Source: a plasmid. From it: DNA of 64,000 nt. Location: the NCBI RefSeq assembly GCF_058153355.1, contig NZ_JBLWLY010000002.1; one strand, 5' to 3'. The stretch's first letter is position 1; each line of letters begins with the position of its first letter. This document shows positions 6,001 to 12,000 of the stretch, piece after piece. Position numbers: made by a program.

Positions 6001-9000
6001 CTGTTTTGTTTTATCCGGATAAACAGGAATGAATGCCGATGAAAATAACGCATCATTATAAATTCTTCCTTTCTGCTGTTATTTTGGTAACCATATTTTA
6101 TTCGGCAGTGCCATATGCAAATATTCTTGATGGCGGCGAAATTCAGTTTAATGGCTATGTTACTGATGAAGCACCCAAATGGGCCTGGCAGATAAGTTCT
6201 CCCGACCAGACTTGGTCTGTGGATACTGCCGATGCCCGTACAGAGAACGGGCAACTGGTTTTTAATTTGCATGATAAAGGGGCTCTGCCATTTCTGGAGG
6301 GACATCTGCATGATGTGGCTGAGCGCGGTGGTCCCGGATTCACGCCATTTATTACTTTCAGCAGTAACGGACAGCCTTTTACTGTGACGGAAGGAAATGG
6401 TGCCTCAGCACAGCACTTTCGCGCCTCTGTCCCGGTGCGTGACCCGGAGACGGGGAACGTGTCGGGACAGCTTTTTTTTACCCTGAATCAGGGAATGGCG
6501 GTCAGTACCGGCAGACAGGACGACGGGGCATCCGTACCGGCTGGCATGTCGCTGGTCAGTGGACAGAGTGTGACGGATGTACAGCCGGGAAGTCTGCCAC
6601 AGGGGCTGAAAGCCCGACTCTCTTCCCTGTTACTGATGAATCAAAATTTTGGCAATGGCATGAATGCGGTGGATAACGGACAGGTTATCAACCAGGGGAT
6701 ACTGACTGACGGTCGGGTGATGGATCTGGCTGCGGCATATGCCTCTGCGGTGTCGGATTTTGAACTGCGGTTGCCGGCAGAGGGTACACCTGCAGCATGG
6801 CAGGCGGGGCTGAATGTGACGGTTACAGTACAGTGATGGTTGCAGGGATATAAGGAGAGAAGAGAATGAAAAAGGTGGCGTTGTTTCTGTTTGCTGCTAG
6901 CCACCTGCCTTCCTGTGTACTGGCTTGGAACACGCCAGGAGAAAATTTCAGCGGAGAGCTTAAGCTGGAAGGCCCGGTGACCAGTACCCGTAACCCGTGG
7001 GTATGGAAAGTCGGGCAGGGAAATGAAGGTCTGGAGGTTAAACAGAGCCGCGGTGTTCGTGGCGGTGGGGAGGGGATTCAGGTCGAACTGCCGGCGATGA
7101 CCGTTTTACTGGGAAAAACCACCCTGACCACACCGGCAGGACGTGAGGGGCTTTCACCCCGGGTCAGTTATGGAAAAGGCACTGAGGGGTTTTCACTTGT
7201 ATGGACAGCGCCTGGCATGGCTGAAGTGACGCTACCTGTCACCGGAGATAATAATGCCCGGGCAGGCACATTTGTTTTCAGAATTCAGGCTGTGGGGGTG
7301 TTGCGCCATGTGCAGGGCGGACAACCGGTGTATGTTGGTATGTATGACGACCTGAATACGAATGGTTTGCCAGGTGAAAGCACTGCCATGAAGGTTTCTG
7401 ATATTCCGGGCGTTCTGCAGAAGATGTTCAGTGGGGAAGGCCCCGGCTGGCTTCAGACAATGACACTCAGTGGTTATTCAGGGGTGAGTCATTTCAGTGA
7501 TGACTTCCTGCGCCAGGTTGAAGGTGTGTATGGTGCACAGACTGTGGCTGGCAGTGGTGAATTACGGCTGAACGGCGAGATGCCGGAACACTGGAGGGTG
7601 TCACTGTCAGTAAACATTGAATATCAGTAAGGAGCAGGAGTGCGTTTTATAATCCGGAGATAAGGAACGTCGGTTACTGTAAGATTGGGGAGTTGTGTTG
7701 ATAGCGGGAGTGGCTGGAATAAGTGGTATACATAGATAAAAATTAAAACTATCACTATTTGAGGAGTTTTTTCCTGCTCTCCATGGGCTTTATAGCTCAC
7801 AAAAAATAGAATAATATTATTAATTATTCTGCTTTTTTATGGGCATTCCCCCTTGAAAAATGAGTTTGTGCCAGAATATTATTAATGTGTTTTTTGTGAT
7901 TTACTAATCAAGGATTGCTGAATAGCATCCAGTACTGAATATTTTGTTCAATTATGTCAGGAACCATACCGAAAATCAAAACAGGTGAAAATGTTCTGTC
8001 TGCAGCCATTCAGCGCATTGAATGGCTATTTGGAACGTTTCCTTCTGTCTGCTTGTCCTTTTCTGGTGGTAAGGATTCTACCGTGCTTTTCCATCTTGTG
8101 TCCGAAGTGGCCCGCAAAAAGAGGCGTCGTTTTTCGGTATTGTTCATTGACTGGGAAGCACAATATCAATGCACCATTACGCATATTCAGAAGATGCAGA
8201 AGATGTACCTGGATGTGACGGACAGGTTTTACTGGGTGGCCCTTCCCCTGACTACGGTAAACGGTGTCTCTCAGTTTCAGCCGGAGTGGATATGCTGGGA
8301 GCCTGGTGTGACCTGGGTTCGCCATCCACCGGAATATGCTATTACGGATATGGCGTATTTTCCCTTTTACCGATATGCCATGACCTTTGAGGAATTTATC
8401 CCGGCGTTTTCCTCCTGGTTTGCCAGGGATAAATACCTGGTGGCTGTTCTGACCGGAGTCCGGGCAGATGAGTCCCTCAACCGCTTTATGGGACTGGTAT
8501 CCCGTCGCAAACAGAGATATGCCGATGATAAACCCTGGACTACGGCATCACCTGAAGGGTTTTATTACACCATGTATCCGTTGTATGACTGGAAAGCCCG
8601 TGATATCTGGATATATAACGCCAGAACCCGAGCTATCTACAATCCCCTGTATGACCTGATGCACCGTGCCTGTGTGCCGTTACGCAACATGCGTGTCTGT
8701 GAGCCTTTTGGTCCTGAACAGCGTAAGGGGCTGTGGCTTTATCATGTTCTGGAGCCGGAAACCTGGGCCAAGATGTGTGAGCGGGTGTCGGGTGCTGCCA
8801 GCGGGGCGCTTTATGCCAATGAGAGCGGTGCCTATTTTGCCCTGCGTAAGCGTATCACGAAGCCGCCTCATCATACCTGGCGTAGCTATGCGATGTTCCT
8901 GCTGGATGTGATGCCGGAAAGAACGGCAGAACATTACCGTAACAAAATTGCTGTCTACCTGCGCTGGTATCAGACGCGAGGCTTCCCGGATGACATTCCG

Positions 9001-12000
9001 GATGAACAGGAGAATGACCTGGGGGGCCGGGATATCCCGTCCTGGCGACGCATCTGTAAAACACTCATAAAAAATGATTTCTGGTGCCGGACCCTCTCCT
9101 TCAGTCCGAACAAAGCCCGGCACTATGAACGTTACCTGCAGCGTATGAAGGAAAGGAGGAAGGAATGGGGGATTCTGTGACACCGGAGATACTTGGCAAC
9201 ATGATTCGTCAGTATTTCAGTCAGGTACGAACTGAAAAAGAGAGCATACAGGCTCTGAATCATCTGCGCAGAGTGCTTCATGAGGTCAGTCCTTTTGCAC
9301 AGGAGCCTGTGGACTGTGTGTTGTGGGTGAAAGCGGATGAGGTGGTGGCCAACGATTACAACCCTAATGTCATGGCACTAGGTGAGAAAAAACTACTGAA
9401 ACAGTCTCTGGAGAAAGATGGTTTCACACAACCGGTGGTGGTGTCAGAGGAGAAGAATCATTATCTGGTGGTGGATGGTTTTCATCGTCAGTTACTGGGG
9501 CGGGAAGCAGATACAGGAAAACGCCTGAGGGGCTGGTTGCCTGTAGTCTGTATTAATCCGGAGAGAAAGGGACAGGCCGCACGTATTGCCGCGACCATTC
9601 GACATAACCGGGCCAGGGGGAAACACCAGATCACTTTAATGTCTGATATTGTCAGGGATCTTTCACGTCTGGGCTGGACGAATGAACGTATTGGTACAGA
9701 GCTGGGAATGGACCAGGATGAAGTGCTGAGGCTGAAACAGATTAGCGGGCTGACAGAGTTGTTTCAGGAAGAGGATTTCAGCCCGGCTTGGACGGTTCGT
9801 TGATGCTGTTAAATATGGGCGGTATTTCTGAAAGTTGATACTTTGGGTAGAAAAAATGATACCGGAAACTATGAAGGATGTGCTTGTCAGGTGACTAGAC
9901 ACCATAGGTCTTAGGCTTTGATAACGGGATAAGATGAGCTGCTTTTCTCATACCATCAGGTGTGATGATGTCGCAGATTTACAAAATCTGATTGATTCTA
10001 AAGATGTATAAGTAAGGAAAAAGTTTTGATATGAAAAAACAGATATTTATTAATAATAAACCTCCTGTAGTCCCTTATTCAGGGGCGCACGCGAAAATAT
10101 TTAAATACATTGAAATCCCTCTGCCGTTTTTCTACTTTATCTATACATCAGGCGAACCATTCCACATGTCTGTCCAAAATACTGTTATTTATGTATCAAA
10201 ATACAATGGTATATTTATTAATAAATCAGTTCCTTTTTCTTTTTTATTTGACAGAGATATATCTGTTCTTCAAAGAAGAGATATTTGTGTTGTGCGATTT
10301 ACGTCAGAGGAGATAAGTGAACATAATGTTTTATTTGATCATGACTTTGAACGATTAAAAAAAATTTCCAAAGCTCAGCTTATATCTCCCGATTATGTTT
10401 TGATTGATTTTTCTAGTGGGGGGGAGGATGAATCCTACGCAATGTCCTGGTTAATATCTCAGTGTACTCATCAGTATACAGATAATAAAAAGACGGAGAC
10501 AGATGCTATTTACGATAAAGTGCGGAGTTCTTATTTGCTTTCATGTATTCTGCAAAAAAACGAAAATGTTGGGCTTATTCTTCATGCACCATCATTTGTT
10601 TCTGTGTCTGAAAAAATCGCCAGAATTGTGATGGCAAATTACTCCCGTAACTGGAGTACTTCCGAGTTGGCCAGTGCGGTTTTAATGAGTGAATCTTCTT
10701 TAAAAAGAAGAATGTACAAAGAGGTCGGTTCTATAAGTACATTTGTACATAAAATAAAGCTTACAGAAGCTATCAGGAAATTACGAAGGACAAATACTCC
10801 CATTTCTGTCATATCATCTGAGTTAGGTTACAGTTCACCATCGTATTTTTCTAAAGTTTTCTTTAAATATTTAAAGACATACCCTCAAAACATAAGGAAG
10901 AAAAATGGTCGGTAATGTCACCAATTAGGAGGACTTGCCGGGCCGCGTTGCAAGGATGAGCCCGCATTACGATTATTTCGTGCTCGATGGCGTACAGCTC
11001 ACCGATTAGTTTCAGTGCTTCTTCCGCTGTCGCGCTTTTGGTACTGATATATACATCGTGGACTTTGCGCCGCGCATGAGCCCAGCATCCTGCTTCCGTC
11101 AACGCGCCGCCTTCGTAAGCGGCTCGCCAGAACCGTATTGATATTTACTGAGAGCTCAGATCAACTTTCCAGGGCAACAGATCGCGTACCCGGTTTGCCG
11201 GCCAGTCCTGGATATGTTCAATGACGTAACGCAGCCACTTTTCTGGCTCCACATTGTTCAGACGGCATGTGCCGATCAGCGAGTACAACACCGCAGCATG
11301 TTCACCACCGCTGTCAGAACCCGCGAAGAGCCAGTTTTTCCGGCCTACGGCCACTCCCCGTAAGGCGTTCTCTGCGATGTTGTTGTCGATTTCCACCCAG
11401 CCATTACTGCAGTACACGTTCAGTGCATCCCACTGTTTCAGCAGGTATGCGAACGCTTTTGCCGTGTCCGAGTGACGCGACAGTGTTTTCATCTGTTGCT
11501 GTATCCAGTCATACAGTGACTGCATCAGTGGCGCGGCTCTGGCTTTTCTTGCCGCCAGACGCTGTTCTGCTGAACAGCCCCGGACCTCTGCCTCGATGGC
11601 ATACAGTTCACCGATACGCTGCAGGGCTTCCGTGGTGATGTCGGTGGGCACTCTTGCATGCACATCGTGGATTTTTCTCCGGGCATGAGCCATACATGCG
11701 GCTTCCGTTATTCTGCCGGATTCGTACAACGCCCGGTAACCACCGTAAGCATCGGCCTGAAGCACTCCGCTGTAACCGGCCAGATGATTCTGTGGATGGA
11801 TACCTTTCCGGTCCGGGCTGTACGCGAACCAGACCGCCGGAGGCATTTCCGAACCGGCGTTACGGTCATCACGAACGTAGACCCACAGCCGGGCAGTCCT
11901 TGTTTTACCGCTGCCCGGCTCCTGGACCGGAACGGGGATATCATCGGCATGGACTTTACCGGGCATCAGCACATACTGGCGCAGGATGTCATACAGCGGT

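Follow-up and report, generated by a model that had tools for sequence, protein, structure and literature searches.

A plasmid-borne IbrA/IbrB gene pair, its neighbours and its relatives in phages

The 64,000-nucleotide stretch of DNA analysed here (the window) belongs to plasmid contig NZ_JBLWLY010000002.1 of NCBI RefSeq assembly GCF_058153355.1. Between a fimbrial operon and an F-type leading region it carries two overlapping genes, ibrA and ibrB, and the question raised by this locus is what the pair does and whether it works with the genes beside it. A sequence-only reading of the window had described a PP-loop protein gene and an overlapping ParB-domain protein gene next to a low-GC AraC-family regulator gene, and had suggested that the module might regulate the fimbriae, serve in defence or anti-defence, or do something else. 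The open reading frames (ORFs) of 408 aa (with the motif SFSGGKDS), 212 aa (VVDGFHRQ) and 294 aa were all confirmed with their coordinates, and domain analysis agreed with the calls of a phosphoadenosine phosphosulfate (PAPS) reductase fold with a PP-loop and of a ParB fold. Our preferred reading, to which we give a probability of about 0.5, is that the IbrA/IbrB cassette at positions 7954–9803 is intact and mobile, that as an accessory paralogue of ybdN/ybdM it reached a plasmid of the pINV type (the virulence plasmids of Shigella and enteroinvasive Escherichia coli, EIEC) independently of its neighbours, and that its products act in trans on DNA, under the control of a nucleotide, to co-activate genes gained by horizontal transfer.

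The ibrAB pair and its distribution

The two genes and their junction, the latter read from the sequence, are laid out as follows:
7954–9180, plus strand: ibrA, encoding a PP-loop ATP-pyrophosphatase-fold protein of 408 aa
9165–9803, plus strand: ibrB, encoding a protein of 212 aa with a ParB/sulfiredoxin (Srx) fold and a C-terminal helix-turn-helix (HTH)
9154–9180, plus strand: ibrA/ibrB junction, with the Shine-Dalgarno sequence AGGAGG at 9154–9159, the ibrB start codon ATG at 9165 and the ibrA stop codon TGA at 9178–9180

The genes overlap by 16 nt, and the Shine-Dalgarno sequence and start codon of ibrB lie inside the 3' end of ibrA, which suggests that the pair is a translationally coupled two-gene unit. 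The identical overlap was found in loci L001–L018, and ybdN and ybdM of E. coli K-12 likewise overlap.

IbrB was 85% identical over its full length to the UniProt protein named IbrB, Q8KU23 (our cluster P0040, UniRef Q8KU23_ECOLX). This protein is 100% identical to IbrB of phage PhiR5_2, whose upstream-encoded IbrA partner shows 88.5% identity with IbrA of the window. Together with the same overlapping order of A then B, these identities assign the pair firmly to the IbrAB family, as the sequence-only reading had proposed. In the work of Sandt, Hopper and Hill of 2002, ibrA and ibrB of strain ECOR-9, both of which were needed, reportedly activated silent prophage eib genes in trans, and we take Q8KU23 and its partner to be that pair. 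The ECOR-9 genes also overlap with ibrA first, and all their conserved motifs are common to the window pair. Their surroundings differ, however. The ECOR-9 genes are chromosomal and part of a prophage-like island that also has antirepressor genes; the window genes are plasmid-borne, with a fae-like operon, an AraC gene and an IS66 element as neighbours. The upstream promoter regions of the two pairs are unrelated. The family had been called poorly understood, and among the papers that we found it is indeed mentioned only at the level of annotation after the eib work.

The K-12 proteins YbdN and YbdM (b0602/b0601) have the same domain architecture and overlapping gene order, and are 57% and 56% identical to IbrA and IbrB, respectively. 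In contrast to the window copy, which would be an accessory mobile paralogue without such a regulator, ybdNM belongs to the core genome and adjoins the gene for the repressor YbdO. YbdM has been called 'completely uncharacterized' (PMC8764527), and the LysR-type YbdO/CitR represses ybdNM, with citR itself described as H-NS-regulated (PMC9068703).

A 3.5-kb block of the window was ~98.5% identical to Shigella and EIEC virulence plasmids (e.g. the EIEC plasmid CP091399, plasmid NC_016833 of S. sonnei 53G, and plasmids of S. boydii), and the two-gene pair alone reached 99.3% identity (NZ_CP026837, NZ_CP011417). The block is of the pINV type and is already in public records, where the three genes are annotated as 'phosphoadenosine phosphosulfate reductase', 'ParB N-terminal / IbrB-like domain-containing protein' and 'AraC family transcriptional regulator'. 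When positions 7300–11000 were compared by BLAST with eight unrelated contexts, homology was confined to 7952–9856, that is, to the two coding sequences, and neither the promoter region nor the AraC gene was shared. The limitation of homology to the coding sequences, and the variety of the contexts, indicate that the pair is an autonomous cassette.

These contexts range widely. The complete pair was found on 533 plasmids, while the arrangement of fae genes, pair and AraC gene was present on 17 of the 864 matching plasmids. On plasmids of hypervirulent Klebsiella, the pair adjoins the salmochelin (iroBCDN) or aerobactin (iuc/iutA) cluster, and it was also found near ehx on a plasmid of Shiga toxin-producing E. 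coli (STEC) and on IncF plasmids. Matches were obtained in 5420 of 5426 complete E. coli genomes, all of which carry the core ybdN-ybdM genes at ~62% nucleotide identity, so that the same two-protein pair is present in essentially the whole species. Extra ibrAB copies with 80–90% identity occurred in ~2,050 E. coli records, about one third of complete genomes. In islands of O157 and of extraintestinal pathogenic E. coli, a gene for a PerC-family regulator follows the pair, and co-induction of ibrB and perC has been described for STEC adherence to epithelial cells (PMC7649339). In phage PhiR5_2, whose record names the genes IbrA and IbrB, the pair comes after two antirepressor genes. Among 80 viral contigs fetched with IbrB, 78 had an adjacent relative of IbrA on the same strand, in varying gene order, and the other two were cut by contig ends. 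The pair therefore co-occurs across plasmids, genomes and phage contigs independently of fae and AraC. Across contexts, dN/dS was 0.05–0.10 for both ibrA and ibrB, showing that both genes are under strong purifying selection.

One chromosomal copy, in an island of E. coli strain 5270 (L009, 10272–15823), has the order ibrA-ibrB-perC and adjoins a trio of genes for a TerB-family protein, an ATP-binding protein and a DEAD/DEAH helicase. This trio may resemble the Shango defence system.

IbrA and IbrB

IbrA is a PP-loop enzyme whose fold is that of PAPS reductase and FAD synthase, and its ATP-binding loop is intact. Pfam gave a split PAPS_reduct match (residues 32–87 and 163–234) and a DUF3440 match (241–389), which we read as a PAPS_reduct domain (~1–235) with a family-specific insert (~96–145), followed by an all-helical DUF3440 domain (~240–408). 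The latter, of ~170 residues, has no solved counterpart and takes the place of the catalytic-cysteine region of CysH. Across 68 diverse homologues (27–52% identity), the PP-loop residues G39, K40 and S42 were invariant, as were D66, E68, W121, S174 (in RxDES), D217 and Y233. No cysteine was conserved in these 68 homologues, and the one column with 90% cysteine is alanine in the window protein; IbrA is therefore expected to be neither a PAPS reductase nor a DndC-type sulfur transferase. It is predicted to retain an ATP-pyrophosphatase or adenylyl-transfer site but not the thiol chemistry seen in PAPS reductase, DndC and BrxP, and it has no ligands for an iron-sulfur (Fe-S) cluster.

The profile scores of IbrA agree with this. 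NCBIfam scores for CysH, CysD and DndC were an order of magnitude under the cut-offs, e.g. 33.1 for CysH model TIGR02057 (cut-off 254.2), 32.1 for CysH model NF002537 (cut-off 154) and 15.5 for DndC model TIGR03183 (cut-off 290.4). PADLOC gave partial matches of 15–26 bits only, to BrxP over residues 30–97 (26 bits) and to DndC at 15–20 bits with no passing stretch. IbrA shares with CysH, the assimilatory PAPS/APS reductase, the PP-loop-like alpha/beta fold of the PAPS_reduct family. The closest folds were FAD synthase, CysD, TilS and TtuA, which are nucleotidyl transferases or PP-loop enzymes acting on nucleic-acid bases. The eukaryotic-type FAD synthase PAPS domain and the ATP sulfurylase CysD were 21–23% identical to IbrA over ~165 residues, but IbrA differs from them in its family-specific insert and its DUF3440 domain. 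No fusion to a ParB domain was found among the long IbrA homologues, whose added length consisted of insertions or C-terminal tails. In one of them (P0235, 631 aa), an insertion of ~230 residues in the PP-loop domain looked intein-like on visual inspection.

IbrB consists of two N-terminal helices, a ParB/sulfiredoxin-fold domain predicted to bind a nucleotide, and a C-terminal HTH of the KorB/ParB type. Its invariant motifs are ANDYNPN (62–68), DGFTQP (85–90), DGFHR (104–108) and TIRHNRARGKH (144–154), and the HTH motif is ELGMDQDEVLRLKQ (179–192). The blocks that stayed invariant in 32 homologues, which range from E. coli proteins to those of environmental phages, were ANDYNPN, DGxTQP, DGxHR, TIRHNRARGxH and ELGMDxDExLRLxQ. 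This conservation suggests a catalytic or nucleotide-binding site, not just a scaffold. The Pfam ParB_N match was weak (E 0.032). In an alignment with a solved ParB, ANDYNPN corresponded to PNPYQPR and DGFHRQ to AGERRL, which places DGFHR as box II; the position of RHNRARG as box III is presumed. Both would be variants of the motifs of CTP-binding ParB proteins, GxxR in box II and ENxxR in box III. ParB-fold proteins bind CTP, ATP or GTP, and their specificity is not predictable from sequence or AlphaFold3 (10.1101/2025.10.10.680097).

KorB of RK2 and VirB of Shigella pINV share with IbrB the order of a ParB/Srx N-domain followed by a ParB-type HTH. However, IbrB has DGFHR in place of the GERR of ParB and RHNRARG at the presumed box III position, and it stops ~20 residues past the HTH without the C-terminal dimerisation domain. 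It also occurs strictly with a PP-loop enzyme as partner, and KorB and VirB lack such an enzyme. Against NCBIfam, IbrB did not match the partition model TIGR00180, and its single hit was nucleoid_noc at 20.1 (cut-off 315); a PADLOC search gave no hit. A second ParB-family gene of the window, which encodes 652 aa in the leading region (16225–18183, plus strand), does pass TIGR00180 (61.1, cut-off 58.45). Since IbrB does not, the window has two unrelated ParB-fold genes.

Possible function and phage relatives

As a co-activator, the pair might work as follows. IbrB would be the subunit that targets DNA, and its activity would depend on a nucleotide bound at the invariant site of DGFHR and RHNRARG. 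IbrA would contribute an ATP-dependent adenylyl-transfer or pyrophosphatase step, rather than sulfate reduction or sulfur insertion. Together they would remodel or mark the target DNA or nucleoprotein, leading to expression of AT-rich, silenced, horizontally acquired genes. VirB is a ParB-fold anti-silencer of the same plasmid family, and the proposed outcome for ibrAB is comparable. We count in favour of a co-activator the regulatory company that the pair keeps, with perC after it, the PhiR5_2 antirepressors before it, and the iro, iuc and ehx clusters alongside. To this we add the co-induction of ibrB with perC and the repression of ybdNM by YbdO, as well as the family identity, the autonomy of the cassette, the linkage of the two genes in viral loci, the purifying selection and the anatomy of the two proteins.

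In environmental phages the pair is part of a larger unit. In 61 loci, IbrB and IbrA were accompanied by a further module of ~135–170 aa, which we term module X, with the conserved pattern WEC...SCEHYLTN...AWLGQA...CYA. Module X is a C-terminal extension of IbrB in some loci and a separate ORF in others, and the orders seen were B+X then A, B-X-A and X-A-B. It matched nothing in Pfam, PHROGs, NCBIfam or PDB sequences, and it was absent from all enterobacterial copies, including the window and ybdNM. The phage IbrB profile phrog_2159 has 365 positions, of which enterobacterial IbrB spans 1–225 only. Examples among the viral loci L026–L089 are:
L079, 6593–7015: module X
L051, 5827–7083: module X in the C-terminal half

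Genes of DNA metabolism were the usual neighbours of the phage copies. The seed search of viral loci gave 10 with replication or recombination neighbours and 1 with packaging neighbours, and individual placements were:
L051: between DNA polymerase and clamp loader
L030: between Erf/exonuclease and primase-helicase
L035: by a DnaD-like loader and a DnaB helicase; another PAPS-reductase gene lies close by
L026: adjoining an exonuclease
L088: ~1.5 kb from a Mom-like DNA-modification gene
L072: adjoining the small terminase subunit (a rarer placement)
L066: adjoining head genes (a rarer placement)

This three-part version of IbrB, X and IbrA in environmental phages, mostly beside DNA-metabolism genes, is the new point of our analysis, and the tie of the window pair to it offers a testable lead, as do the missing catalytic cysteine of IbrA and the invariant ParB/Srx motifs of IbrB. 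In L035 (8994–9812) and L037, a second and shorter gene of the PAPS-reductase family (phrog_424) lies a few kb downstream, past the DnaB helicase gene.

Several points weigh against the co-activator. Our analysis identified no DNA target, nucleotide ligand or IbrA substrate, and only the coupling of the genes points to a physical complex of IbrA and IbrB. ParB, KorB and VirB use for their clamp action the dimerisation domain that IbrB lacks. The sole functional experiment, the eib activation of Sandt in 2002, reportedly used an allele other than that of the window. In Shigella, ibrAB is decaying, as ibrA is truncated beside an ISSfl4 element in S. flexneri pINV and the block is deleted in S. 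sonnei lineage 3, and it is therefore dispensable on pINV. The phage copies, which lie mostly amid genes for replication, recombination and DNA modification and come with module X, fit a DNA-modifying enzyme system better than a pure transcription factor.

The main alternative, a phage-derived enzyme system that modifies nucleic acids or nucleotides, is possible, if doubtful. IbrB would target or activate the substrate (e.g. by phosphotransfer like Srx, SerK and SbnI), IbrA would adenylylate it, a covalent mark would result, and gene activation in E. coli would be a by-product. The enzyme-grade invariance in both proteins is consistent with this, as are the closest folds of IbrA, the intein-like insertion in one of its homologues, the excess of replication and recombination loci over packaging loci among the seeds, and the phage copies amid DNA polymerase, clamp loader, DnaD/DnaB, Erf/exonuclease, primase-helicase and Mom-like genes. 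On the other hand, some phage copies adjoin head or terminase genes instead, module X has been lost from the enterobacterial pair, IbrA has neither conserved cysteines nor Fe-S ligands for thiolation or phosphorothioation, and no modification has been reported for E. coli carrying ybdNM or in the papers that we found. The enzyme and the co-activator are not exclusive and can both hold. A more specific proposal, which we regard as unlikely, is that enterobacterial IbrAB/YbdNM is a reduced form of a widespread and undescribed three-module phage system for a new type of cysteine-independent, ATP-dependent covalent modification of DNA or nucleotides, directed by the ParB/Srx-HTH protein, whose mark alters the read-out of silencing or restriction. 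If true, such a mark would account for two observations, the position of the phage copies near DNA-metabolism genes and the activation of silent, horizontally acquired genes in E. coli.

The analogy to DndC and to defence systems that the sequence-only reading had drawn did not hold up in the sequence comparisons made here. In DNA phosphorothioation (DndB/DndC) and in BREX type 4 (BrxP), a ParB-superfamily protein is likewise paired with a PAPS-reductase-fold PP-loop enzyme that acts on DNA (PMC10853773, PMC12914056). However, DndC has a cysteine dyad, which IbrA lacks along with any other conserved cysteine, IbrA scores far under the DndC and BrxP models, and IbrB matches no profile of DndB (DGQHR). 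No dndA/D/E or brxC/pglZ/brxL gene was found near ibrAB, whose neighbours are the faeI-like gene, the AraC gene and IS66. Membership of Dnd, Ssp or BREX-4 was discarded on the model scores, the PADLOC results and the absent conserved cysteine. IbrA, IbrB, YbdN and YbdM are unmentioned in a 2025 survey of the ParB-CTPase fold and in the reappraisals of Dnd and BREX from the Aravind laboratory. A role in anti-phage defence or plasmid anti-defence more generally is very unlikely. The PADLOC BrxP and DndC profiles weakly touch the PP-loop region, the cassette is mobile and patchy in distribution, and the copy beside the TerB/ATPase/DEAD-helicase trio lies in a variable island; but IbrB gave no PADLOC hit, the IbrA matches were partial and weak, F-type plasmids with the same leading region are without the pair, and IS66 and the AraC gene intervene. 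A core paralogue in 99.9% of E. coli and frequent carriage by phages also fit defence poorly.

It is highly improbable that ibrAB and the AraC gene form a dedicated regulatory unit of the adjacent fae-like operon. The pair adjoins the operon and follows its faeI-like gene on the same strand, IbrAB is said to activate surface-protein genes (in the 2002 work of Sandt), and low-GC AraC regulators commonly control fimbriae. Yet this arrangement occurs on pINV-type plasmids only, neither fae nor AraC accompanied the pair in any other context examined, the AraC gene is often a pseudogene, and porcine K88 plasmids use FaeA/PapI-type and PapB-type genes and have nothing past faeI. It is next to impossible that the pair is a routine module for plasmid partition or, alternatively, an auxiliary metabolic gene (cysH-type) of sulfur assimilation. 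Public labels ('ParB/RepB/Spo0J family partition protein', 'phosphoadenosine phosphosulfate reductase') point that way, and a virome study counted the DUF3440 clade as viral CysH genes, but the same pair is mostly chromosomal or phage-borne. Partition was discarded on the lack of an adjacent ParA gene, of a centromere-like repeat array and of a match to TIGR00180. The sulfur role was discarded on scores of ~33 against CysH cut-offs of 154–254 and on the absence of the catalytic C-terminal cysteine. The pair thus belongs to no well-characterised housekeeping family and is not a partition module with a centromere. We advise against reading it as a regulator of the fimbriae, a system for partition, an anti-defence gene of the leading region or a gene of sulfur metabolism, and the options for its chemistry narrow to a cysteine-less enzyme of the adenylyl-transfer type working with a ParB/Srx-HTH protein.

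Upstream region and neighbouring genes

Two candidate signals lie in the AT-rich DNA upstream of ibrA:
7797–7899, no strand assigned: 25-nt inverted repeat, with arms at 7797–7821 and 7875–7899 that are 84% complementary and 53 nt apart
7853–7882, plus strand: candidate sigma-70 promoter of ibrAB, TTGAAA and TATTAT with an 18-nt spacer, 10 of 12 consensus matches

The inverted repeat is restricted to the pINV context, was not found upstream of ibrAB elsewhere, and may be an operator. It flanks the sole good sigma-70 promoter candidate 5' of ibrA; this promoter call is weak and a consensus match only, as sigma-70-like sites in the region were no commoner than in shuffled sequence. No upstream operator was common to different ibrAB contexts, and homology between them ended at the start codon.

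On either side of this region lie the neighbours with which the pair had been grouped. The operon upstream of ibrAB is of the chaperone-usher type and encodes a PefC/AfrB-type usher, a chaperone and fae-like subunits; ibrAB, the AraC gene and the upstream faeI-like gene share one strand. A genuine porcine K88 plasmid has faeA/faeB-type regulators, and its matched segment stops at faeI, without the pair or the AraC gene. Downstream are:
10031–10915, plus strand: gene for an AraC-family regulator of 294 aa, with an NCBIfam HilC/HilD-like HTH
11114–13700, minus strand: IS66-family element, with transposase at 11145–12716, TnpB at 12736–13083 and TnpA at 13083–13694

The AraC gene, in DNA with 32–38% GC, adjoined ibrAB on pINV-type plasmids only and was missing from every other context examined; the gene itself was likewise confined to that plasmid type. 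It is intact in the window, and in many pINV records it is frameshifted, interrupted by IS1 or truncated. Compared with the closest EIEC plasmid, pN/pS was 0.32 for the AraC gene and 0.11 for ibrA (from 22 differences only), and together with the breakage this suggests that the AraC gene is in decay. It is a neighbour on pINV-type plasmids, not a conserved part of the cassette, and a role as third component of ibrAB was discarded on co-occurrence.

The IS66 element stands between the block of fae, ibrAB and AraC genes and the F-type leading region beyond it, which has ssb, the 652-aa ParB-family gene and psiB/psiA. A link between ibrAB and the leading region was not borne out, because F-type plasmids with the leading region of the window match it only from ~11112 onward. 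The position of ibrAB between the fimbrial operon and the leading region would be an accident of plasmid assembly.

Three IS66 copies in the same orientation were found in the window, at ~11114–13700, 29170–31138 and 46395–48468, with 98.5–99.8% identity, together with fragments at 37850–38061 and 44359–44570. Such direct repeats could drive deletions like that reported for S. sonnei lineage 3, in which pINV has lost the fae-ibrAB block and IS66 flanks the deletion (PMC12795559). In the leading region, a single ORF of 351 aa (18235–19290, plus strand) comprises both PsiB (profile positions 1–127 of 144) and PsiA (4–238 of 239). Compared with a K88 plasmid, this in-frame fusion corresponds to a deletion of ~85 bp that took away the last part of psiB (its 3' end) and the first part of psiA.

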